Shown here piece after piece: positions 4,057-36,012 of a stretch of 41,023 nt of DNA. A program made the position numbers and the translations under genes. The notes beneath the pieces are model-generated. The model saw nothing but the letters and a program-made list of their open reading frames with translations, was not told where the DNA came from and searched no databases. Positions within the stretch are counted from its first letter, which is position 1; every line of letters begins with the position of its first letter. The stretch lies in IMG/VR virus record IMGVR_UViG_2690316062_000001, positions 1-41,023 of that record; one strand, 5' to 3'. This DNA comes from a virus. Lineage: Duplodnaviria; Heunggongvirae; Uroviricota; Caudoviricetes.

Positions 4057-5387
4057 TGCACTGGCACCTTCAGAGGGATCACCGGCACAAAGCCGGGATG
4101 CGTAATGGCATTACGCCGGATAATGTCCGCGTCACGCGCCGCGTTATCAAACCAGGTCGCCGCCAGCACCAGCGCGGGTAAAACCTCATCCGGTGTGCGC
4201 TGAATGATCCGTGCAGACTGTTCAAGGCGCGTGTTGATATCCGCATTCAGATCTGCTTTCACCCGGCGCAGCGCCAGAAACAGCGCATCACTGGTTGTAC
4301 GGGACAACTCCTTATCAATTGCCGTATTCAGTGTGTCGCGAATGTCAGTCAGTTCTTCCCACGTCGGCAGATCAACCGTGTTTTTCACCGCCGGTGCATT
4401 GTTCAGTGCCGGATGCGTGACGGAAGGCCAGCCGGTGCTCTGCGCAGCTGTTGTTGCCTGCCCCACTGCGGCATTCTGCATCACCGCGGAAGTTGTTGGC
4501 GCAGGCAATCGGGTGACGGCATACGCCGCTTCGCTGATTGCGGTCGTACGAAGGGTGCTGGCAACCACGTTACGCTGCTGCGTCGCCGTGGCGGTGGTTT
4601 TACTGTCCGTTTTCCAGACGCCGCGCGGTTGCAGATCGCTGCCGAGGCTGACACCGGAAAGCGTTTTGATCATGGTGACCAGGTCGCTGGCGTTACCATA
4701 AAGGCGTTTCCCGGTACGCCACATTTTCTGCACCTGCTCAACGAAATTTTTGCCTGACGATGGCGGCGGCAGAAGTACCGAGATATCCCCCTGCAACAGC
4801 CTGGCGGCATCCGATACGGCAGAATCCACCACTTTCATCGCATCAGAAACATACCCCAGCATTATGCTGGCATTACCGATAACGTCGTTCTGCACGAAAT
4901 CCGCCACACCATCGATACTGAAACCGCTGAAGCTGTCACTGATGCAGTCATCCAGTGCAGAACAGGATGACATCAGCGTCTGCGCCGTCGCCGCACCTGA
5001 TGTGGGGTAAGAGAGTTCTCCTGCTTCGACAAACTTCAGGTCAAAGCGGACAATACGCCCTTCACTTTTCGATGTGCTGACCCGAACTTCCCCGTCAACA
5101 CAGACTTTCAGCTCACCATATGTCGGGTGGACAAGCGTGCCGGGACCGGGTTTATTCAGCGCTTCAATCAGGCGATCGCGCTGGTCAAAGCAGTCATCTC
5201 CCACCACATAAGCTGTGATGGACGGGCGGAAAGTGACTTTTCCCAGATCTTCGGTATAGGGCTTGTCGCGGTTCGGGTATTCATGTGTTTCCACACGGCG
5301 ACCGGTTCCCGCACTTTCTTCTTCAACCTTAAACGGCACACCTCGAAATGACGCATCCTGAAGCCTGTCTTTCCACGTCATATACAC
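4053..5387 (-). CDS. DNA circulation protein (Mu gpN-like)
   Basis: 444-aa ORF; N-terminus MYMTWKDRLQDASFRGVPFKV...THEYPNRDKPYTEDLG...PGPGTLVHPTYGEL matches the recalled Mu N signature. Confidence 0.7.
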   Translation of the reverse strand: MYMTWKDRLQDASFRGVPFKVEEESAGTGRRVETHEYPNRDKPYTEDLGKVTFRPSITAYVVGDDCFDQRDRLIEALNKPGPGTLVHPTYGELKVCVDGEVRVSTSKSEGRIVRFDLKFVEAGELSYPTSGAATAQTLMSSCSALDDCISDSFSGFSIDGVADFVQNDVIGNASIMLGYVSDAMKVVDSAVSDAARLLQGDISVLLPPPSSGKNFVEQVQKMWRTGKRLYGNASDLVTMIKTLSGVSLGSDLQPRGVWKTDSKTTATATQQRNVVASTLRTTAISEAAYAVTRLPAPTTSAVMQNAAVGQATTAAQSTGWPSVTHPALNNAPAVKNTVDLPTWEELTDIRDTLNTAIDKELSRTTSDALFLALRRVKADLNADINTRLEQSARIIQRTPDEVLPALVLAATWFDNAARDADIIRRNAITHPGFVPVIPLKVPVQ

Positions 5388-22067: not shown

Positions 22068-22514
22068 GCTTCACCTCCACAGAGGTCAGACGCTGGATGC
22101 AAAAAAACGCAGGTGCATTTCTGCATCTGTGAAGGGAGAAGAGAATTTGGATTGTGTGTGCGCATAAACGTCCCCGTTTAGCGCAGAAGTCACCGAAGTT
22201 GTTCAGGCTCCGGTGATACAATTATGGCGAATTGATTATTCATAATCAAACAAGATAAGGTCTCAAACTTCATGCAAGCCAAGATTTATTTCTGACAGAA
22301 TCATACAAAGAAGCTATTGGTCAGAATCTACTCGGACTGTAAAACATACACATAACCTTAAGCTCTCACTTTAAGCATTGTTGAAATAATACCCGTCAAG
22401 TACAACCTTAACCACGACTGGGATATTTCCCTAGCTACCACGAGTTGTACGGCTATTAAACTGTCGTTAAATTCAGTAAGAGAATTTCATCCGATAAGTC
22501 AAGGCATGTAAAAC

Positions 22515-23952: not shown

Positions 23953-24395
23953 ATATTCTTTCCTGTTCAAACTGGAGAGAATTGTACTACAGTTTGAACT
24001 CAACTCATCTGTTTCATCATTGTGTACCCATTGATGTTCTTTTATATACCCTCAATACCCGTTTCATCGCGGCACTCTGGCGACACTCCTTAAAAATCAG
24101 GTTCGTGCTCACCTTTCCTGCCCGTTCTCCCCGGGTAGCAAACCGATAATACACCGTTCGCCAGTCCTTACTATCAATGACCAAGATTCCTGCCCATATC
24201 ATTTTAGCCGCAGCCTAATTTATGCTGGTTATTGTTACGTGTGAATTCAGTTAGCTGCATAAATTGTCACGGAAGTGATACATCGATATTATCGAGAAAT
24301 TCACTCGAATTTATACGATTGAAACTGCACTTATATCTGTTTTAAATACTCCGAACACTCTTTACAACAACTGTGTGAAAATGGAGATAATTAAA

Positions 24396-25124
24396 ATGAA
24401 AAAGGGTTTGGCTATTTCATTCATTGCCGCCGTGTGTGCATTTGCTGCAAATGCGAGTGCTGAGGAAAGTAAAAACGGGTTTTATCTAACCGGTAAAGCC
24501 GGTGCCTCTGTGGCGTCGTTATCAGACCAGCGTTTTCAGTATGATGAAGGCGATTGGTCAACTGGATTTAAGGGCAGCAACAACCATGACACGGCGTTTA
24601 GTGGTGGTATCGCAGCGGGTTATGACTTTTACCCACAGTTCAGTATTCCTGTTCGTACGGAGCTTGAATTTTATGCCCGCGGAAAGGCTGATACAGAATA
24701 CAATCTTTTTAAGGACGACTGGGTGCGAGCTGACATGAAGAATGAGGTGTCAGTCAACAGCCTGATGTTGAACGCGTACTATGACTTCCGGAACGACAGC
24801 GCATTCACCCCTTGGGTGTCCGCAGGGATTGGTTATGCAAGAATTCATCAGAAATCAACGGGTGTCATCACCTTCGATAATGGATACGGATACAGTGACC
24901 GCGCATCTGATTCCCGTTCAGATTCTTCTGATAACTTCGCATGGAGCCTTGGTGCTGGCGTCCGCTATGACGTAACTCCAGATGTCAGTCTGGACATCAG
25001 TTATCGCTACCTGGATGCAGGTGATGCCAATGTGACTTATACCGATGATTGGGGCGATAAATATAAATCAGATGTTGATGTAAAAAGTCATGACATTATG
25101 CTTGGTGTAACCTATAACTTCTGA
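24396..25124 (+). CDS. Outer-membrane beta-barrel protein (Ail/Lom/PagC-like)
   Basis: Start chosen at the second Met with GGAGA 9 nt upstream; signal peptide MKKGLAISFIAAVCAFAANASA; alternating aromatic/hydrophilic strands; C-terminal ...GVTYNF. Confidence 0.7.
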   Translation: MKKGLAISFIAAVCAFAANASAEESKNGFYLTGKAGASVASLSDQRFQYDEGDWSTGFKGSNNHDTAFSGGIAAGYDFYPQFSIPVRTELEFYARGKADTEYNLFKDDWVRADMKNEVSVNSLMLNAYYDFRNDSAFTPWVSAGIGYARIHQKSTGVITFDNGYGYSDRASDSRSDSSDNFAWSLGAGVRYDVTPDVSLDISYRYLDAGDANVTYTDDWGDKYKSDVDVKSHDIMLGVTYNF

Positions 25125-25172
25125 ACAAACCTTTTCTAAATTATAATTACACGCTTACTGTGATTAACTAAA

Positions 25173-25206
25173 GCCCCCTGCAATATATTGCTATGGGGGG
25201 CTCTTT
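25173..25206 (+). terminator. Candidate terminator after OMP gene
   Basis: GCCCCC...GGGGGC stem enclosing a GCAATATATTGC palindrome, then TCTTT. Confidence 0.4.
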
Positions 25207-25605
25207 CGCTCATCGTGCAGGATGATTTTTGCCTAATTCCGTTATCACCACAATAATATTCATCGACATTTTCTTAATGGACACCTGAAAATATTTTATC
25301 GGGTAATATTCCGAGATTTTATTGTTTTTATTCTTTTCCGTTATCTCTGATAATATTGTAAGCATCCGGTGAACTCGCCTTGCGTGGACTAGCCAGTCGT
25401 TGTAGCACTGACGCCGCTGCGTTGAGTTCTTTTTTTCGCCATCAGCTCTCCTGCTTCTGTAGATAAAGAAGAGACAGAAGAATGGCGTTGATCACAACGA
25501 CCAGTAATGCGAATTCATCGGCCCCTCACACTGTTACCGCGGCAACGTCCTGCGCACAGAAGCTCTTATGCGTCCCCAGGTAATAAATAATTGCCTCTTT
25601 GCCCG

Positions 25606-26307
25606 TCATACACTTGCTCCTTTCAGCCCAAACTTAGCTTTGATTTCTGCGATCTTCGCCAGAGCCTGTGCACGATTTAGAGGTCTACCGCCCATGACAG
25701 GAAGTTGTTTTACTGGTTCAGGTATCGCCTCACCACGGTTAATTCGCGCGGTCATACAGGTCAGCTCATCGGCAGCTTTACGCCGTAATTCCGCGTCAGT
25801 CAGCGCATTGGCCCGCATGTTCTGGTACAGATTGGTAACCAACCAGTAGTGCGCGTTTGATTTCCATGGATAAGACTCTGCGTCCGGATACAGGCCACGC
25901 TTCCGGCAATACTCGTAAACCATATCAACCAGCTCGCTGGCGTTTGGCAGCCCGGCGGTAACGGATGCTTCTTCACGGCACCAGGCAACAAACTGCCCGG
26001 GTGATGGCAGGAATGGTCGATTCTGCCGACGGGCTACGCGCATTCCAGCGTTAACCTGTTCCATCGTGGTGATCCCATTTTCCCGGAAAGCCAGAACCCA
26101 CTGGCGGCGGATTTCGTTCAGTTCGTTCTGGTCCCGGTTAGCCAGGCTCGCCGGGAAAGTTGCCAGTAACTGGCTGAACACACCATTGATAATCTGCGCT
26201 ACCTGCTGTACCTGCGGCTTTTCGTCGTACTGTTCCGGCATGTTATTGGCGATCCGACGCATCTGCTCACGGTCAAAGTTAATCATCTGTGCGGCGATGT
26301 TTTTCAT
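25606..26307 (-). CDS. P: Replication protein P (DnaB helicase loader)
   Basis: 233-aa ORF MKNIAAQMINFDREQMRRIANNMPEQYDEKPQVQQVAQIINGVFSQLLATF..., recalled as near-identical to lambda P. Confidence 0.9.
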   Translation of the reverse strand: MKNIAAQMINFDREQMRRIANNMPEQYDEKPQVQQVAQIINGVFSQLLATFPASLANRDQNELNEIRRQWVLAFRENGITTMEQVNAGMRVARRQNRPFLPSPGQFVAWCREEASVTAGLPNASELVDMVYEYCRKRGLYPDAESYPWKSNAHYWLVTNLYQNMRANALTDAELRRKAADELTCMTARINRGEAIPEPVKQLPVMGGRPLNRAQALAKIAEIKAKFGLKGASV

Positions 26308-27233
26308 AGATCCACCCCGTAAATCCAGTCTGTGTTTGTCAGGTCGAGTTTTGGTTTTCCGGCTGTCACGCCAGCCTGTTGTTTGTTACGGTTGATTTCG
26401 AGTTGGGTCCACTTGTCGCGAAGTTTGGCCGGGCTCAGCACGTTACCGGACCAGAAGTTGTCCTGGCATGCCCAGCGGAAAAGCACGCACATGTCGCGGT
26501 GGTTACGTCCGTCACGTTCACGCATCAGGCGGATATCGTTAGCCCACCCTGCAAAATTCGGTTTTCTGGCTGATGGTGCGATGGTCTTCACCATGTCAAA
26601 CATCCACTCTGCGGCGGTCAGGTCTTCTGCTGTCCCCCACTTGCTGCCGCTCTGAATTGCAGCATCTGGTTTCACCACAGGAAGATCGTTTTCTGGTTGG
26701 TCAGAGGATTCGCCAGAATTCTCGGACGAAAAAGGTTTTATATTGTCTTTTGTTAGTTTGTCTTTTGTGTTTACCTGATTCGGGTAAACGCCTTTACCTG
26801 ATTTGGGTAAACTTTTCTTACCTGATTCAGGTAAATTTACCTCTTTCAGGTAAACTTTATTTTTCTTACCTGATTCGGGTAATGTTGACCATTCACTGAC
26901 CACATTATTAATACCGATATTCCGCCCGCTCTGAATCAAAATCCCACGCTTTACCAGAACACTTTTTGCAGCAGAACACTTGTGCGGTAATATCCCGGTC
27001 AATCCGGACAGTTGCTCGTTGCTCACCCAATCCAGTTTTTTATTAAAGCCATATGTTTTGCGCATGACAGCCAGGAAGACCAGAAGCTGGTGCTGTGTTA
27101 ATCCGGCCAGCATCACAGCTTCCAGCAACTCATTTGCAATGCGCGTATAACCATCATCGAGATCTGCCACGCGCGGCTCCTTTTGTGCCGCATCCGGCAC
27201 TGGAAAATTGAATATCTCAGCAGTGTTTGCCAT
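26304..27233 (-). CDS. O: Replication initiator O
   Basis: Start set at MANTAEIFNF with GGGAGG 5 nt upstream; ADLDDGY motif; iteron array inside the gene; ATGA overlap with P. Confidence 0.8.
   Translation of the reverse strand: MANTAEIFNFPVPDAAQKEPRVADLDDGYTRIANELLEAVMLAGLTQHQLLVFLAVMRKTYGFNKKLDWVSNEQLSGLTGILPHKCSAAKSVLVKRGILIQSGRNIGINNVVSEWSTLPESGKKNKVYLKEVNLPESGKKSLPKSGKGVYPNQVNTKDKLTKDNIKPFSSENSGESSDQPENDLPVVKPDAAIQSGSKWGTAEDLTAAEWMFDMVKTIAPSARKPNFAGWANDIRLMRERDGRNHRDMCVLFRWACQDNFWSGNVLSPAKLRDKWTQLEINRNKQQAGVTAGKPKLDLTNTDWIYGVDL
26781..26894. repeat. Replication origin iterons (5 copies of about 19 bp TTACCTGATTCGGGTAAAC)
   Basis: Copies at 26781-26799, 26804-26822, 26828-26846, 26847-26865, 26876-26894, each internally palindromic (TTACC...GGTAA), inside the O gene as in lambda ori. 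Confidence 0.75.
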
Positions 27234-27319
27234 AATTCCTCCCGCAATGAGTGTGTTACGATTTGCACCTGAAAGTCGGTTCTGTTCCAGCAGACCGGCT
27301 TTCGCCATTTCTGAACCTG

Positions 27320-27865
27320 TCATATCGCCCCCAGCATGGTAGTAACCATCGCCATCAATGGACCAGCCAGATCTGGGTCCACACGAAACATCGATACAAT
27401 ACCTTCACTAATTTCCTTCAGTTTCTGGTGGCGTGGTGCGTTGAGAATGACAGCCTGTTTTGCCTCACTGAGTTCCTTTTCCATTTCAGCCAACCTAGCC
27501 ATGAAGCTATCCTGCTCAACCAGGTAACCGCGATATTCCAGCGGTAGTACCGCCAGAATTGCCGGGGTCAGTTCACGCACGTTATTTCGGTATTTTTCAG
27601 AATCGAATTTGTTATCGAGGAAGCGGAACAGCTTCTGGCGTGCACGGCTGACATCATCAGGGAAATCGATGGTGCCGCCGCCCTGCTCCCGATACTCATT
27701 CACAATGAGTGTGGCAACGACATCCTGATTATCTACAGCCGACCAGGCGCGGACGGCATCACGGATTTTTTCGTGGCCTGCCACCTGTTTTGTTTGAGAA
27801 CGATTTATCACCGCAGTCGGGCTAAATCCGCTAGTCTGTTGGTATGTAAGTGGTTGCATAGTCAT
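27320..27865 (-). CDS. YdaT-like regulatory protein (cII position)
   Basis: 181-aa ORF between cro-like gene and O; motifs NEYREQGGG and ILAVLPLEYR resemble recalled Rac YdaT. Confidence 0.5.
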   Translation of the reverse strand: MTMQPLTYQQTSGFSPTAVINRSQTKQVAGHEKIRDAVRAWSAVDNQDVVATLIVNEYREQGGGTIDFPDDVSRARQKLFRFLDNKFDSEKYRNNVRELTPAILAVLPLEYRGYLVEQDSFMARLAEMEKELSEAKQAVILNAPRHQKLKEISEGIVSMFRVDPDLAGPLMAMVTTMLGAI

Positions 27866-27889
27866 TGCCTTATCAGTTAACGCCGCAGT

Positions 27890-28117
27890 TTAGGCGGCAG
27901 AATTACTCGCGTTAAACAATGGTGCGAGGTCGGGACGAATATCTGCTGGTTTAATCTTTCCACCAGTGGCTGAGACAATTTTCATTACATAGCGGGCATC
28001 AATTCCGCCACCGTGTAGCCAACGCCAAACTGTGGGTTGGGCTACACCGCATAGATCTGCCAGTCGTTTTTGACTGCCTGTAATACTGATTGCGAGTTGA
28101 ATGGTTTGATTTGTCAT
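27890..28117 (-). CDS. Cro/YdaS-like HTH repressor
   Basis: Start at ATG preceded by AGGA; HTH QKRLADLCGVAQPTVWRWL; divergent from cI. Confidence 0.6.
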   Translation of the reverse strand: MTNQTIQLAISITGSQKRLADLCGVAQPTVWRWLHGGGIDARYVMKIVSATGGKIKPADIRPDLAPLFNASNSAA

Positions 28118-28151
28118 TATCAATTCCTATTGGTATTGCAATGAATGAATA

Positions 28152-28180
28152 ATAGCAATGCGTATTAATCCAAGCAATAG
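28152..28180 (-). promoter_or_regulatory. PR-like promoter for the cro/replication operon
   Basis: Minus strand TTGCTT-17 nt-TATTAT upstream of the cro-like gene; overlaps AGCAATAGCAA operator-like motif. Confidence 0.45.
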
Positions 28181-28191
28181 CAAAACGTGTT

Positions 28192-28220
28192 TTGACCATC
28201 AATACGCAAGCGTATAAATT
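28192..28220 (+). promoter_or_regulatory. PRM-like promoter for cI (near-leaderless)
   Basis: TTGACC then 15-17 nt then TATAAA/TAAATT; expected start lies within a few nt of the cI ATG at 28228. Confidence 0.4.
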
Positions 28221-28227
28221 AAAACTT

Positions 28228-28920
28228 ATGAAAAAAGAAACTCTTGCTGATCGCTTAAATCTAGCGATGGAACAATCTGGAATGTCTCAAGGCGCTCTTG
28301 CAAAGGCGTCTGGCGTAGCTCAACCCACAATCTGGAGACTGACAAGCGGCAACGCGCGCGGCTCAACAAAAATTGTTGAAATAGCTAATGCATTGGGTGT
28401 TCGAACAGAATGGCTCTCTTCAGGCATAGGCCCGATGAGAAATGACGGTCAACAATCAGGGAAGCCTGCTGTCAGCCATTCCAAATACTTCAAAATTGAC
28501 GTTCTTGATATAGAAGTCAGTGCCGGGCCGGGTGTAATCAACCGTGAGTTTGTAGAAGTTCTACGCTCGGTTGAATACTCGTTTGACGATGCTCGTCACA
28601 TGTTCGATGGCAGGAAGGCGGAAAATATCCGCATCATTAACGTGCGTGGTGACAGCATGTCAGGAACGATCGAACCAGGTGATCTGCTGTTCGTTGATAT
28701 CACGGTTAAATCTTTCGACGGTGATGGTATCTATGCGTTTCTGTATGACGACACCGCCCATGTAAAACGCCTGCAAATGATGAAGGATAAGCTGCTGGTT
28801 ATCTCTGATAACAAGAGCTACTCACCGTGGGACCCGATCGAGAAAGACGAGATGAACCGCGTGTTCATCTTCGGGAAAGTCATCGGGAGCATGCCGCAGA
28901 CATATAGAAAGCATGGGTAG
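28228..28920 (+). CDS. CI-type repressor (HTH plus S24 LexA-like autopeptidase)
   Basis: N-terminal HTH QGALAKASGVAQPTIWRL; C-terminal GDSMSGTIEPGDLLFVD (Ser) and HVKRL (Lys) catalytic dyad. Confidence 0.85.
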   Translation: MKKETLADRLNLAMEQSGMSQGALAKASGVAQPTIWRLTSGNARGSTKIVEIANALGVRTEWLSSGIGPMRNDGQQSGKPAVSHSKYFKIDVLDIEVSAGPGVINREFVEVLRSVEYSFDDARHMFDGRKAENIRIINVRGDSMSGTIEPGDLLFVDITVKSFDGDGIYAFLYDDTAHVKRLQMMKDKLLVISDNKSYSPWDPIEKDEMNRVFIFGKVIGSMPQTYRKHG

Positions 28921-29004
28921 AAATCAGAACAAAATTATGCACTTCGCTTTTCAGCTTACTGTAGTAAGGCAATAAATTAGGCTTGACGTTAGCTATCAGG
29001 TGCA

Positions 29005-29019
29005 CAACAATAATTGTTG
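29005..29019. promoter_or_regulatory. Perfect 15-bp palindrome CAACAATAATTGTTG upstream of cassette
   Basis: Read directly; lies 31 nt upstream of the 29050 ATG, after a TTGACG -35-like hexamer at 28983-28988. Confidence 0.4.
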
Positions 29020-29049
29020 AATAATAGGTTTTTTTAACTAGGTGATAAC

Positions 29050-30189
29050 ATGGCAGCGGTTGAATTTCAATTGTCTAGGAAGATGATTGATTGGATAGCA
29101 AATTCTCAAGGAGTTTCTATCGAAACTCTTGCTGACCAAGTCATGCCCAAAAAGATTAATAAATTTCTTAACGGAGTGGTAAGTAAATCCGCAGCAGAAA
29201 AACTGGCAAAAATTGGAGGAATCCCTTTCGGTTTTTTATTTCTTGAAACGCCACCAACTCCAGCCAAACCCAAGATCCCTGACTTAAGGCAAGCTATAAA
29301 TAGCCGTGAGTTAGGAAAAGATTTTTTTGATGTTTACTATGATATAGAATATAAACTTGAGTGGTACAAAGACTATTTAAGAGAAAATGGTAATGATGAT
29401 CCACTCGATTTTATTGGTAAATTTAAATTTAATAGAAAATTAAATTATAAGGTTGTTGCTACAGACATAGCAAACACAATACATTTTGATATACAAAAAG
29501 AGATAAAAAATGTCACTTTTGAGAGCTATTTTTCTAAAGTGGCAAAATTAATAGAAGACACTGGCGTATTAGTTTTCAAGAATGGTGTTGTGGGTAATAA
29601 TAATAAAAGAAAACTTGACACGCGAGAGTTTCGTGGTTTCTGTATATCTGATAGCGTTGCTCCGATCATTTTTGTAAATAGCTCGGACGCGTTATCTGCG
29701 CAGGTATTTACATTATTTCATGAGGTGGCTCATCTTTGGCTTGGAGTCGATGGAGTCTCTGGGTGGGACACAGAAAAAAACATAGAATCTTTTTGTAATA
29801 AAGTTGCTGCTGAAATCTTAATGCCTGATAATCTCTTCAAATCTTTCTGGCTTAATGCATCCAGCGATAATAATTATTATCGAGTAAAAGAGGTTTCTAA
29901 GTTATTTAAGGTTAGTGATTTCGCTTGTGCAATCAAAGCGTTACAATTAGATTTGATAGAAAGAAACACTTTGGAGATAATTAAAGATCAAGCTTACAAT
30001 AAGCCCAAAAAAGAATCTAATGGTGGTTCTTTCTTTAACACATTACCTGTTCGTAACAGTCCAAAACTTACGAATATAATAATTTCCAAAGCAATGTCTC
30101 AACAATTACCATTAAGGGAAGCAGGCGTACTGCTAAATGTAAAAGCAGATACAGTTGTTGAATTTTATAAAAAACGAGAATCTCTATGA
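29050..30189 (+). CDS. HTH domain fused to ImmA/IrrE-family zinc metallopeptidase (COG2856)
   Basis: AGGTGA RBS; N-terminal HTH-like segment; HEVAHLWLG (HExxH) followed by VAAEILMP, the ImmA/IrrE signature; strongly AT-rich. Confidence 0.8.
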   Translation: MAAVEFQLSRKMIDWIANSQGVSIETLADQVMPKKINKFLNGVVSKSAAEKLAKIGGIPFGFLFLETPPTPAKPKIPDLRQAINSRELGKDFFDVYYDIEYKLEWYKDYLRENGNDDPLDFIGKFKFNRKLNYKVVATDIANTIHFDIQKEIKNVTFESYFSKVAKLIEDTGVLVFKNGVVGNNNKRKLDTREFRGFCISDSVAPIIFVNSSDALSAQVFTLFHEVAHLWLGVDGVSGWDTEKNIESFCNKVAAEILMPDNLFKSFWLNASSDNNYYRVKEVSKLFKVSDFACAIKALQLDLIERNTLEIIKDQAYNKPKKESNGGSFFNTLPVRNSPKLTNIIISKAMSQQLPLREAGVLLNVKADTVVEFYKKRESL

Positions 30190-30698
30190 TTCATAATGGA
30201 AAATTCTTAATTGATAGTAATGTCTTCATAGAGGCAAAAAACTTTGCATATAACTTCAATTATTGCAAAATATTTTGGGATTTTCTTCTCGCTTTACACA
30301 TTAATGGTCTGATTTATAGCATTAATGCTGTAAAAAAAGAACTATGTGCAAAAGATGATCCATTGTGTAAATGGATTAAAGAAGAGTTACCATCATCATT
30401 CTTCGAAGATGAGCATAGTTCAATAGAAAATTATGCAAAGTTAATAAATTGGTCAACTAAATTAGATGTTACCGAAAAGGCAAAGTTTGATTTTGCAAGC
30501 CATGAAAAAGCAGATGCTTTTTTAATAGCCCATGCGATGACACATGGATATACTATTATTACCCATGAGAAACCATCCGGTGGCAAACCTAAAAAAAGAA
30601 TAATGATCCCGGATGCTGCTGCTTCTCACGGCGTTAAGACATTAACACTATATGAATTTCTTCCAAGATACGCTAGTCATAATTTTTCTTTGAAATAA
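30186..30698 (+). CDS. PIN-like nuclease domain protein (DUF4411 family)
   Basis: ATGA start/stop overlap with upstream gene; N-terminal FLIDSNVFIEAKN PIN-like strand with Asp; further acidic residues spaced as in PIN folds; ...IAHAMTHGYTIITHE. Confidence 0.7.
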   Translation: MIHNGKFLIDSNVFIEAKNFAYNFNYCKIFWDFLLALHINGLIYSINAVKKELCAKDDPLCKWIKEELPSSFFEDEHSSIENYAKLINWSTKLDVTEKAKFDFASHEKADAFLIAHAMTHGYTIITHEKPSGGKPKKRIMIPDAAASHGVKTLTLYEFLPRYASHNFSLK

Positions 30699-30703
30699 AA
30701 CGT

Positions 30704-30730
30704 CCCGGCCACCGTGCCGGGTTTTCTTTT
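30704..30730 (+). terminator. Rho-independent terminator ending the cI-cassette operon
   Basis: CCCGGC-caccgt-GCCGGG followed by TTTTCTTTT, 6 nt after the stop at 30698. Confidence 0.7.
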
Positions 30731-30860
30731 GCCTCCCCTCATCACACACACCGTTCAAAAAACCACCACAACCCCGCTTCAGTTATCGCTATGCGATGCA
30801 AGTCACAAAATTAATTCTTTTTGCTATCAAATATTTAATATCAAAACACATCTAGCAATA

Positions 30861-30889
30861 GCAATAAGTATTGATATCATCAATAGCAA
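30861..30889 (+). promoter_or_regulatory. PL-like promoter with operator-like repeats
   Basis: TTGATA-17 nt-TATTAT; spacer and flank carry AGCAATAGCAATA / CAATAGCAATAGC, the same motif as in the cro-cI intergenic region. Confidence 0.45.
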
Positions 30890-31176
30890 TAGCTATTATC
30901 ACCATGTCGCAACAACACAACGATACGGCAATCACCTGATTCACCGTTGCGATGACCGCTTAGATCCGCAGCTTGAATTTCAGCAGGCTCCGGGGAGTGC
31001 GAGGGGTGAAGCGGACGCGTGAACGTCGGTGTGACCAGCTGAAATCAACTCAACACTTCATACCTTAGTCGCTTCAACGAGGCGGCTTAGTTATGACAAC
31101 CGGCGGCCATCCACCGCCTGAATACGCGCAGAAGTCTCTATATGTTCAGCAGCCCAGCTTACGGGCAGGAGTTTTT

Positions 31177-31383
31177 ATGGTTCATCAACATTACGGAACG
31201 CAGACCGTTAATCGCGGCGCGGTCATGCCAGGAATGCTGGTCAAACACAAAGATGGTACCTGGACTGCATCAGCTAATTTACGCGGACGGCTTTATCTGC
31301 ATCGCGGCATCGAGCGCACTTATACCCGTGATTTGCTCGTGGAAGTTTTTCTCGACGGACGCGGTAACGGCCTGAATCACTAA
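31177..31383 (+). CDS. Hypothetical early protein (kil/cIII position)
   Basis: 68-codon ORF starting at ATG with CAGGAG 7 nt upstream (MVHQHYGTQTVNRGAV...); the longer 31093 start lacks an RBS. Confidence 0.35.
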   Translation: MVHQHYGTQTVNRGAVMPGMLVKHKDGTWTASANLRGRLYLHRGIERTYTRDLLVEVFLDGRGNGLNH

Positions 31384-31459
31384 CCCCCCTTTCCTGTTTT
31401 CCTAATCAGCCTGGCATTTCGCGGGCGCTATTTTCACAGCCATTTTCAGGAGTTCAGCC

Positions 31460-31756
31460 ATGAACGCTTATTACATTCAGGATCGTCTTGAGGCTCAGAG
31501 CTGGGCGCGTCACTACCAGCAGATCGCCCGTGAAGAGAAAGAGGCAGAACTGGCAGACGACATGGAAAAAGGCCTACCCCAGCATTTGTTTGAATCGCTC
31601 TGCATCGATCATTTACAACGCTGCGGGGCCAGCAAAAAAGCCATTACCCGTGCATTTGATGACGATGTTGAGTTTCAGGAGCGCATGGCAGAACACATCC
31701 GGTACATGGTTGAAACCATTGCTCACCATCAGGTTGATATTGATTCAGAGGTATAA
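31460..31756 (+). CDS. gam: Gam, RecBCD inhibitor (short GamS-length form)
   Basis: 98-aa [63 protein letters not shown]..., recalled as near-identical to lambda GamS. Confidence 0.9.
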
Positions 31757-31761
31757 AACGG

Positions 31762-32547
31762 ATGAGTACAGCACTCGCAACGCTGGCTGGGAAGCTGGCT
31801 GAACGTGTCGGCATGGATTCTGTCGACCCACAGGAACTGATCACCACTCTTCGCCAGACGGCATTTAAAGGTGATGCCAGCGATGCGCAGTTCATCGCAT
31901 TGTTGATCGTCGCCAACCAGTACGGCCTTAATCCGTGGACGAAAGAAATTTACGCCTTCCCTGATAAGCAGAACGGCATCGTTCCGGTGGTGGGCGTTGA
32001 TGGCTGGTCCCGCATCATCAATGAAAACCAGCAGTTTGATGGTATGGACTTTGAGCAGGACAATGAATCCTGCACATGCCGGATTTACCGCAAGGACCGC
32101 AATCATCCGATCTGCGTTACCGAGTGGATGGATGAATGCCGCCGCGAACCATTCAAAACCCGCGAAGGCAGAGAAATCACCGGACCGTGGCAGTCGCATC
32201 CCAAACGGATGTTACGTCATAAAGCCATGATTCAGTGTGCCCGTCTGGCCTTCGGATTTGCTGGTATCTATGACAAGGATGAAGCCGAGCGCATTGTCGA
32301 AAATACCGCATACACTGCAGAACGTCAGCCGGAACGCGACATCACTCCGGTTAACGATGAAACCATGCAGGAGATTAACACTCTGCTGATCGCCCTGGAT
32401 AAAACATGGGATGACGACTTATTGCCGCTCTGTTCCCAGATATTTCGCCGCGACATTCGCGCATCGTCAGAACTGACACAGGCCGAAGCAGTGAAAGCTC
32501 TTGGATTCCTGAAACAGAAAGCCACTGAGCAGAAGGTGGCAGCATGA
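31762..32547 (+). CDS. bet: Bet (Red-beta) single-strand annealing protein
   Basis: 261-aa [69 protein letters not shown]..., matches recalled lambda Bet. Confidence 0.95.
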
Positions 32548-33859: not shown

Positions 33860-33957
33860 ACATGAAAAGCAAAATCATCAGGGAGCTACAGGCTCCTTTT
33901 TTATTATTCGCATTTACCCTCAAGCGTATTAACCAACAATTCAGGGATTAATGAAAG

Positions 33958-34502: not shown

Positions 34503-34824
34503 GGCCTGTCAGTTTCTTAAGATATCCAGACCAACCGCCACCAACTGGATACGAACAGGCCGCCTACAGGCAACACGCAAAGACCCCACTAAACTAAAAT
34601 CTCCTTACCTCACAACACGACAAGCCTGCATTGCGGCGCTTCAGTCTCCGCTGCATACTGTCCAGGTGAGCGCGGGTGATGGCATAACAGAGGAAAGAAA
34701 ATGTCACTCTTCCGCAGAGGTGAAATATGGTACGCCAGTTTCACATTGCCGAACGGTAAAAGATTTAAACAGTCTCTTGGAACAAAGGACAAAAGGCAGG
34801 CGACAGAGCTCCATGACAAGCTAA
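34474..34824 (+). CDS. xis: Excisionase (P22 Xis-like)
   Basis: 116-aa product from [32 protein letters not shown] (HTH); overlaps the int start by about 120 nt. Confidence 0.65.
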
Positions 34825-35864
34825 AGGCTGAAGCATGGCGGGTCAGCAAACTTGGTGAAATACCTGATATGACGTTCGAGGAGGCGTGTATCAGGTGGCT
34901 CGAAGAGAAAGCACATAAAAAATCACTGGACGATGACAAAAGCCGGATCGGATTCTGGCTTCAACATTTCGCAGGAATGCAACTAAGAGACATTACTGAA
35001 TCAAAAATTTATTCAGCAATGCAGAAAATGACGAACCGGCGTCATGAGGAAAACTGGAAACTCAGGGCAGAAGCATGCAGAAAAAAAGGGAAACCAGTTC
35101 CAGAATACACGCCAAAACCAGCGTCCGTTGCAACGAAGGCTACGCATCTTTCATTTATAAAGGCCCTGCTAAGAGCCGCAGAGCGTGAATGGAAAATGCT
35201 GGATAAGGCACCAATTATTAAAGTGCCTCAACCAAAGAATAAACGGATCCGCTGGCTGGAGCCCCATGAAGCACAAAGGCTGATTGATGAATGTCCGGAG
35301 CCATTAAAGTCTGTTGTTGAATTTGCACTGGCAACAGGCTTAAGACGCTCGAACATCATCAACCTTGAATGGCAACAAATAGATATGCAGCGCCGGGTGG
35401 CATGGATAAACCCGGAAGAGAGTAAATCAAACCGCGCAATTGGCGTTGCGCTGAATGATACTGCATGTCGCGTATTGAAAAAACAAATCGGGAATCATCA
35501 CCGTTGGGTATTTGTGTACAAGGAAAGCTGTACCAAACCAGACGGAACGAAAGCGCCAACAGTAAGGAAGATGCGGTATGACGCAAACACAGCCTGGAAA
35601 GCAGCGCTGAGACGGGCTGGTATTGATGATTTCAGATTTCACGACTTGAGACACACCTGGGCAAGTTGGCTGGTTCAAGCCGGAGTCCCGTTGTCAGTGT
35701 TACAGGAAATGGGAGGCTGGGAGTCTATCGAAATGGTTCGTCGATATGCTCACCTTGCACCTAATCACCTTACCGAACACGCACGGCAAATAGACTCGAT
35801 CCTGAACCCATCGGTCCCAAATTCGTCCCAGTCAAAAAATAAGGAAGGTACTAATGATGTGTAA
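34701..35864 (+). CDS. int: Tyrosine integrase (P22/DLP12 Int-like)
   Basis: 387-aa [45 protein letters not shown]...; catalytic-domain motifs ...[10 protein letters not shown]...RYAHL; stop 16 bp from the att core. Confidence 0.9.
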
Positions 35865-35880
35865 CTTATTGATTTAAATG

Positions 35881-35928
35881 GTGCCGATAATAGGAGTCGA
35901 ACCTACGACCTTCGCATTACGAATGCGA
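35881..35928 (-). other. att core: 48-bp copy of the 3' end of tRNA-Thr(CGU) (thrW-type), not a complete tRNA
   Basis: Reverse complement GCATTCGTAATGCGAAGGTCGTAGGTTCGACTCCTATTATCGGCACC corresponds to anticodon loop (CGT), T-arm and acceptor 3' strand of tRNA-Thr; flanking sequence on the 5' side does not continue the tRNA. Confidence 0.7.
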
Positions 35929-36012
35929 AGTTTTTATATTTTAACTGCTTGAACAACCATCAGAAATCACAAATTTATCATTTTAAATCATAATATTAAA
36001 ACAAAAAACCTG

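Follow-up and report, generated by a model that had tools for sequence, protein, structure and literature searches.

In phage lambda, the two control regions that share the operator motif lie 2.4 kb apart. Here, we analysed a window of 41,023 nt, the whole of one stretch of tailed-phage DNA, in which two control regions with one shared motif take the same places in the gene order and are separated by about 2.7 kb. The likeness to lambda extends to predicted operators that lie over the -35 and -10 hexamers, to three evenly spaced OR units with an OR2-like unit adjoining the -35 of PRM, to a cI start directly after the -10 of PRM, and to a CI with an S24 autocleavage domain. The window differs from lambda in its operator sequence and HTH, in having a YdaS-family Cro and a YdaT-family protein in the place of CII, and in the lack of N, nutL and tL1, with kil being the first gene after PL.

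Rac, with its racR-ydaS-ydaT/kilR arrangement, shares with the window the YdaS and YdaT families, a KilR-type kil and, as far as is known, the lack of N. RacR, unlike the CI of the window, is not known to have an S24 domain. Also, Rac is defective, whereas the close relatives of the window prophage are isolated phages. For CP-933P from E. coli O157:H7, footprints and reporter fusions have been presented and the OR repeats recur at PL933P (PMC8630535; PMC9986795). Its PaaR2/YdaS/YdaT system (PR933P, PRM933P, PL933P) has a YdaS-type cro, a YdaT-type cII and division-inhibitor genes past PL, as does the window, but it differs in its repressor, in its half-site consensus GTTTAGTAA, in having four palindromes and a toxin-antitoxin pair in the repressor operon, and in being a cryptic prophage.

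The CI of Salmonella phage BTP1 was described as the repressor of that prophage, transcribed with a downstream moron from one start, and the moron/defence slot that BTP1 likewise has between cI and PL holds bstA (PMC7067206). BTP1 (and also ST160; P22-like) has the same CI HTH as the window, a near-identical OR and an OL with the same -35, spacing and units. It differs from the window in cro and c2 and in the presence of a P22-type nutL (boxA CGCTCTTTAA and boxB GCGCTGACAAAGCGC) and an N gene downstream of PL. HK022 and HK639 are lambdoid phages without N, like the window, in which an RNA element begins right after PL, and the left arm of HK639 with kil and gam is similar to that of the window. 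Their put elements show no sequence similarity to the leader of the window and have no second copy in it. The closest relatives are of two kinds, the BTP1 immunity region, which has the same repressor specificity and an N gene, and the CP-933P/Rac type, which has the same cro/cII families and no N.

The predicted PL promoter in a lambda-like gene order

The gene order of the window is lambda-like and comprises P, O, YdaT (CII-like), YdaS (Cro-like), OR, cI, two morons, a terminator, the PL site, kil, gam, bet, exo, xis, and int, with the following coordinates.

25606-26307, minus strand: P
26304-27323, minus strand: O
27320-27865, minus strand: YdaT-family CII analogue (PF06254, E = 8.1e-30)
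27890-28117, minus strand: cro-like YdaS-family HTH protein (PF15943, E = 9.6e-15)
28228-28920, plus strand: cI repressor with HTH_3 and Peptidase_S24 domain matches
29050-30189, plus strand: IrrE/ImmA-like M78 peptidase gene, 379 aa
30186-30698, plus strand: DUF4411 gene, overlapping the M78 peptidase gene by 4 nt
30704-30731, plus strand: intrinsic terminator closing the cI-moron operon just 5' of OL/PL, CCCGGCCACCGTGCCGGG then TTTTCTTTTG, kept in the heteroimmune phage PhiR26_1
30871-30899, plus strand: predicted PL promoter, -35 TTGATA at 30871-30876, 17-nt spacer, -10 TATTAT at 30894-30899 (promoter scan and conservation)
31177-31383, plus strand: kil, KilR-type cell-division inhibitor and first gene of the PL operon (phrog_294, E = 1.3e-37; RefSeq annotation)

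The cI gene, the morons, the terminator, the PL site and kil-gam-bet-exo-xis-int are all on the plus strand, and PL reads away from cI. Downstream of exo, small genes are followed by xis and int (int at 34701-35864). As this is the lambda map read from right to left, OL/PL would be expected exactly at the PL site and in the orientation observed. A YdaS-family HTH protein is encoded at the cro position and a YdaT-family protein at the cII position, which places the locus among those with YdaS/YdaT-type immunity. Prophages of IAI1 and of about 30 further complete genomes show 99.8% identity to the region 27850-31470.

The preliminary description had reported a promoter TTGATA-17-TATTAT at 30861-30889. 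Sequence and 17-nt spacer are indeed present, but they are located 10 nt further to the right, at 30871-30899, and owing to this shift the range 30843-30889 that had been given for the site lacks the full -10. The promoter match alone is not significant, with 13 promoter-like sites in 3.8 kb as compared to 10.1 expected from scanning shuffled sequence, and the promoter call is therefore based on context and conservation. Transcription from PL would be predicted to start at about 30905-30907.

The slot between cI and PL (29050-30698, plus strand), which corresponds to the rexAB position in lambda and the bstA position in BTP1, holds SIR2 or ASCH genes in relatives. PADLOC gave only partial matches (capP, RmrA) for the M78 peptidase gene and none for the DUF4411 gene; possibly, the two genes form a defence or toxin-antitoxin-like pair that is co-transcribed with cI. 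Within the O gene (26766-26884), five tandem copies of the 20-nt palindromic repeat TTTACCTGATTCGGGTAAAC, spaced about 24 bp apart, are presumably replication-origin iterons. P and the nin genes are separated by an inserted ORF for a beta-barrel-like outer-membrane protein of 249 aa (24264-25124, plus strand) with a TTGTCA-17-TATTAT promoter-like site of its own. This ORF runs convergently to transcription from PR, and different genes take its place in the IAI1 prophage. Directly after int, a match to the Rfam tRNA model (35882-35954, minus strand; 36.3 bits, above gathering), for which ARAGORN calls no tRNA, possibly represents part of a tRNA gene that marks the attachment site.

Repeats of the two control regions and their relation to the CI HTH

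The CI of the window is 86% identical to the repressor of BTP1 and 82-83% identical to the CI proteins of prophages from Kluyvera cryocrescens and Citrobacter pasteurii, which were found via their kil genes. The HTH region (residues about 15-60) does not differ between these four, which are referred to as the four homoimmune sequences in the following. PhiR26_1 encodes a CI with a C-terminal domain as in the window and a different HTH. The predicted elements of the two control regions are as follows.

28148-28169: OR1, predicted unit AATAATAGCAATGCGTATTAAT over the PR -10 and spacer
28173-28194: OR2, predicted unit AGCAATAGCAAAACGTGTTTTG over the PR -35 and abutting the PRM -35; carries the 11-mer discussed below
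28198-28219: OR3, predicted unit ATCAATACGCAAGCGTATAAAT over the PRM spacer and -10
28177-28172 (-35 TTGCTT) and 28154-28149 (-10), minus strand: PR, with a 17-nt spacer and the extended -10 TGCTATTAT, kept in relatives
28192-28220, plus strand: PRM, TTGACC-17-TAAATT
30818-30906, plus strand: immunity-specific OL/PL segment, swapped in PhiR26_1 and kept in BTP1, Kluyvera, and Citrobacter
30819-30840: OL3, candidate weak third operator, block TTTTGCTATCAA...TTTAATA, kept in all four homoimmune sequences
30854-30875: OL2, predicted unit AGCAATAGCAATAAGTATTGAT over the PL -35
30879-30900: OL1, predicted unit ATCAATAGCAATAGCTATTATC over the PL spacer and -10, 25 bp from OL2

The PL promoter had been described as embedded in repeats, the core of which was said to recur in the cro-cI region over the -35 of PR. 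Both statements proved correct, as the repeats AGCAATAGCAATA and CAATAGCAATAGC are found at 30854-30866 and 30881-30893, respectively, and the core AGCAATAGCAA at 28173-28183 overlaps the PR -35. On both strands of the 41 kb, the exact 11-mer AGCAATAGCAA has only two copies, at 28173 and 30854. When one mismatch was allowed, six matches were obtained as compared to 0.82 expected (a count of six was reached in 0 of 100 shuffles), and four of the six are inside the two control regions. The regions are also linked by a 49-nt direct repeat (28151-28199 and 30857-30905; 73% identity) and by two 31-nt inverted repeats common to OR and OL.

These repeats resolve into heptamer half-sites, ATYAATA or AGCAATA, and the complement TATTRAT, blocks of which cover the -35 and -10 of PL, PR, and PRM. 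A 22-bp model, ATYAATA-N8-TATTRAT with up to two mismatches, gave five sites in 41 kb as compared to 0.46 expected, and four of these five are located at 28148-28169, 28198-28219, 30854-30875, and 30879-30900. Repeat units are 25 bp apart, starting at 28148, 28173, and 28198 in OR, and like units at 30854 and 30879 overlap the PL hexamers. PR, which drives cro(YdaS)-YdaT-O-P, is missing from the promoter scan list due to the fact that its -35 TTGCTT matches the consensus at only three of six positions. The cI ATG at 28228 is located 7 nt past the PRM -10 and the cI mRNA is therefore probably leaderless, as in lambda.

Several pairings of the half-sites were tried, AGCAAT-N4-ATTGCT (16 bp), ATYAATA-N8-TATTRAT (22 bp) and the outward TATTGAT-N3-ATCAATA (17 bp). 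Palindromes of 16 bp are present in OL2 (AGCAATAAGTATTGAT at 30860-30875) and OR1 (AGCAATGCGTATTAAT at 28154-28169), and the 17-bp outward pairing is found as TATTGAT-ATC-ATCAATA at 30869-30885. OR2, which is a gap in the series of 22-bp-model sites, also holds the palindrome CAAAAC-GT-GTTTTG and is identical in BTP1 and Kluyvera, with one substitution in Citrobacter. OL1 fits the 16-bp palindrome in the window but does so poorly in BTP1, Kluyvera, and Citrobacter. None of the three forms accounts for all units, each fitting some sites and failing at others in the four homoimmune sequences. The operator boundaries listed above are thus to be taken as predicted ones, with 16-bp, 17-bp, and 22-bp half-site pairings all fitting. 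Comparison of the four homoimmune OL sequences did not reveal a clear OL3, and the block at 30819-30840, which misfits the palindrome models, is assigned tentatively.

From the PR -10 to the cI ATG, OR is nearly identical in all four homoimmune sequences. Their OL regions align without gaps and have in common TTGATA, a 17-nt spacer, TATTAT (TATTGT in BTP1) and the outer half-sites; variation is seen at positions between the half-sites. The 22-bp model matches only OR and OL in BTP1, and in Kluyvera and Citrobacter it matches only one OR-side and one OL-side site each; zero sites were obtained in six loci with other or unknown immunity types. PhiR26_1 agrees with the window in the terminator, in about 100 nt preceding OL and in the entire leader, and only the segment of about 30818-30906 is replaced, by one with an ACAACC.../...GGTTGT repeat that also fills the OR of PhiR26_1; the promoter at the corresponding place is TTGACG-17-TTAAAT. 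HTH, OR, and OL have therefore been exchanged as one unit, as is characteristic of an immunity region and of repressor operators, indicating that the immunity-specific OL/PL comprises 30818-30906. Operators vary in concert with the DNA-binding domain of the repressor, the same HTH going with the same sites and a different HTH with different repeats. The earlier proposal that the two control regions mirror OR and OL of lambda is thereby supported by synteny, by conservation and by the co-exchange of operators and HTH in PhiR26_1.

We think it improbable that the repeats are mainly the target of another regulator, Cro-like YdaS or CII-like YdaT, rather than of CI. Cro of lambdoid phages does bind the same operators as CI, and in CP-933P YdaS and PaaR2 footprint the same repeats (PMC8630535). 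Also, there is a loose resemblance between the palindrome TATTGAT-ATC-ATCAATA at 30869-30885 and the site of YdaT, TTGATT-N6-AATCAA (PMC9986795). However, in BTP1, where cro (216 bp) is a different one and YdaT is replaced by a lambda-type c2, the OR/OL sites are nevertheless kept together with the CI HTH, which means that the motif tracks CI. Moreover, no match to the YdaT consensus is present inside OL, and a Cro that shares the sites of CI is compatible with an OL/PL function of the segment. Elsewhere in the window, a match to the YdaT consensus with one mismatch (28106-28123) spans the start codon of cro (ydaS) and a perfect one (22232-22249) in the nin region overlaps a promoter-like site; overall, such matches are not above chance (4 as compared to 3.15 expected).

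The PL leader and antitermination

The preliminary description had found no N-like ORF between PL and gam, had considered that antitermination might work differently from lambda, and had proposed a search for nut-like or put-like RNA structures. The first point was confirmed, the sole family-supported ORF in that interval being the KilR-type kil, and the proposed search found neither boxA plus boxB nor put in the PL leader. When lambda N, BTP1 N, phi80 N, and HK022 Nun were used as tblastn queries, E values of 0.36 or worse were obtained. A scan of the early strands for ORFs with an arginine-rich motif revealed no plausible candidate, one out-of-frame ORF inside gam being judged spurious, and the full record of phage 4A7 contains no annotated N. 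On the PL (plus strand) and PR (minus strand) transcripts, no boxA-like 8-mer followed by a hairpin was detected; the nutL of BTP1, which served as a positive example, is clear by eye. A covariance model for put, built from seven sequences (HK022 putL and putR, HK639, phiEt88, CobraSix, S9-5, and UPF_BP1), had its best match in the window inside gene O, with 9.9 bits and E = 0.14, and none in the leader. As cro and ydaT are only 24 nt apart, there is no room for nutR or putR, and a search downstream of PR for a second copy of the leader, as an analogue of putR, gave only chance-level matches of 26 nt and 73% identity.

Terminator scans detected no terminator between PL and kil. As the tL1-type terminator of relatives is absent, transcription would not need antitermination in order to reach kil through exo, and the simplest reading is that the family has lost N and tL1 together. 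Further downstream, antitermination may not be required either. Inside the PL operon, a hairpin with a T run that resembles an intrinsic terminator (33880-33898) and is followed by TTTTATTATT (33880-33908 in all, plus strand) is located between a phrog_303 ORF and a TraR/DksA-like gene and upstream of xis-int, and with such a site before xis-int a read-through mechanism for the distal genes is possible.

30907-31176, plus strand: untranslated PL leader, 270 nt, common to heteroimmune phages

The PL leader is 96-99% identical in 16 isolated phages. Of 5426 complete E. coli genomes, 2223 contain it, in nearly all cases as a single copy, and in none of them is it annotated as coding. The layout of PL, leader and kil is the same in the isolated phages 4A7, 4C10, 1W, 3W, D2, Perceval, and the PhiR series. 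Directly before kil, the final 58 nt of the leader show 100% identity in three divergent relatives.

It could be supposed that this leader is a new cis-acting antitermination or anti-Rho RNA that replaces N and nut in the phage family. Like putL of HK022, it begins at the transcription start, it is common to heteroimmune phages and occurs in 41% of the complete E. coli genomes, the phages in question are without N, nut, and put, and the terminator-like site at 33880 precedes xis-int; also, lambdoid phages without N have already been noted and suspected of RNA antitermination (PMC12315714). However, neither the whole leader nor its first 150 nt fold better than shuffled sequences (z = -0.55 for the first 150 nt), and the identity of 94% between these 150 nt and those of PhiR26_1 is the same as at the third codon positions of gam and exo, so that no extra constraint is apparent. 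As the first 150 nt are unstructured and drift at about the synonymous rate, the conservation of the leader is no evidence of function in this part. The lack of a second copy downstream of PR, the 24-nt gap between cro and ydaT and the fact that the Kluyvera, Citrobacter, and Enterobacter relatives have different and shorter leaders (75-165 nt) argue in the same direction. Moreover, the structured part at 31058-31118 is also found downstream of a terminator in phi80, an N phage, and in HK639, a put phage, which makes it an unlikely substitute for N. We give this proposal little credence.

Coding in the leader by an extended kil, starting at ATG 31093 or further upstream as in the annotation of PhiR26_1, was considered and rejected, as the frame is toggled by a TAG/CAG polymorphism at 31066. 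The kil deposited for PhiR26_1 (378 bp, locus 4607-4984) starts at a GTG in the leader; this long call exists due to a CAG where the window has TAG (31066), and it is probably over-extended.

A structured RNA element upstream of kil

31058-31118, plus strand: structured element with hairpin A (31059-31096) and hairpin B (31102-31118)

This part of the leader folds far better than shuffled sequences (z = -4.4). Hairpin A shows compensatory changes in 6 of its 15 pairs when seven phages are compared, and among 55 distinct variants its inner pairs occur as three to six Watson-Crick or wobble pair types each, with every position paired in at least 93% of the variants (51 of 55 or more). Hairpin B, GGCGG-CCATCCA-CCGCC, and the linker are invariant. 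Within the 3' arm of hairpin A, a GAG(G) is present that together with ATG 31093 opens a mini-ORF, MTTGGHPPP, the tail of which is variable, with 16-43 residues in some phages and an in-frame fusion to kil in the window type. Conservation ends with hairpin B and selection therefore seems to act on the RNA. The element is not represented in Rfam: with 25000-32000 as the query and E values up to 10, all families obtained were either unrelated or implausible eukaryotic ones, and with the whole window at the gathering threshold only the tRNA-model match was obtained.

The element occurs in at least 120 IMG/VR contigs and in phi80, HK225, HK639, ENT1, and KO-TP1, and in many phages it is located upstream of kil or other early-left genes. 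In the five named phages an intrinsic terminator directly precedes it, and in phi80 this terminator follows N. Of 122 contexts examined, 74 show five or more consecutive T directly 5' of the element, and 34 carry a leader of the window type, without such a run. The HK639 record annotates hairpin B as a terminator. In phages without N, such as that of the window, no other RNA element that seems to be under selection lies between PL and the first gene. As a guess, it might have a role in translation or stability of downstream genes. Tentatively, hairpin A and the invariant block TTATGACAACCGGCGGCCATCCACCGCC could constitute an undescribed cis-regulatory leader by which many lambdoid phages gate kil and the remainder of the early-left operon, possibly by a translation-, polyproline- or Rho-sensitive switch around MTTGGHPPP; we judge this to be possible, though rather doubtful.

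Discussion

The PL site is most probably (with a probability of roughly 0.85) the ordinary early-left operator-promoter (OL/PL) of a YdaS/YdaT-type lambdoid E. coli prophage. Position, orientation, repeat statistics, conservation and the co-variation of operators with the HTH were established by computation, and each OL/PL feature that can be examined in the sequence was found, namely the position and orientation, hexamers under repeated sites, and operator-HTH co-variation. The idea that the similarity of OR and OL is a by-product of two AT-rich promoters, with no operator function, is hardly credible, for although both regions are AT-rich and the promoter-like match is no better than expected by chance, the exact 11-mer has no copy elsewhere in the window, none of 100 shuffles reaches the observed count, four of five 22-bp sites are in the control regions where 0.46 would be expected in 41 kb, and in PhiR26_1 motif and HTH have been swapped jointly.

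As an ordinary OL/PL, the site would function as follows. In the lysogen, CI dimers, which have an XRE-type HTH and a LexA-like S24 autopeptidase domain, would bind to the predicted operators and occupy at least two adjacent ones in OL. With ATYAATA/AGCAATA half-sites as operators, OL2 over the -35 and OL1 over the spacer and -10, PL would be shut, and the three like units 25 bp apart in the cro-cI region (28148, 28173, and 28198) would shut PR and control PRM. Upon RecA-stimulated self-cleavage of CI, RNA polymerase would start near 30906, and the PL transcript would consist of a 270-nt untranslated leader followed by kil, gam, bet, exo and the genes towards xis-int. According to this model, neither an N protein nor a nut site nor a put RNA would take part.

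In large part this is textbook biology, with one more immunity specificity in the lambda mould, and BTP1, a phage of Salmonella ST313, has the same CI specificity. Definition of the operator half-sites and of the immunity-specific segment is useful for the annotation of a prophage family that is present in about 40% of the complete E. coli genomes. Two aspects go beyond the ordinary. A very common family of lambdoids, known from isolated phages, runs its early-left operon without N, nut, put, or a tL1-type terminator, and a strongly covarying hairpin with an invariant partner hairpin precedes the early-left genes in many phages.
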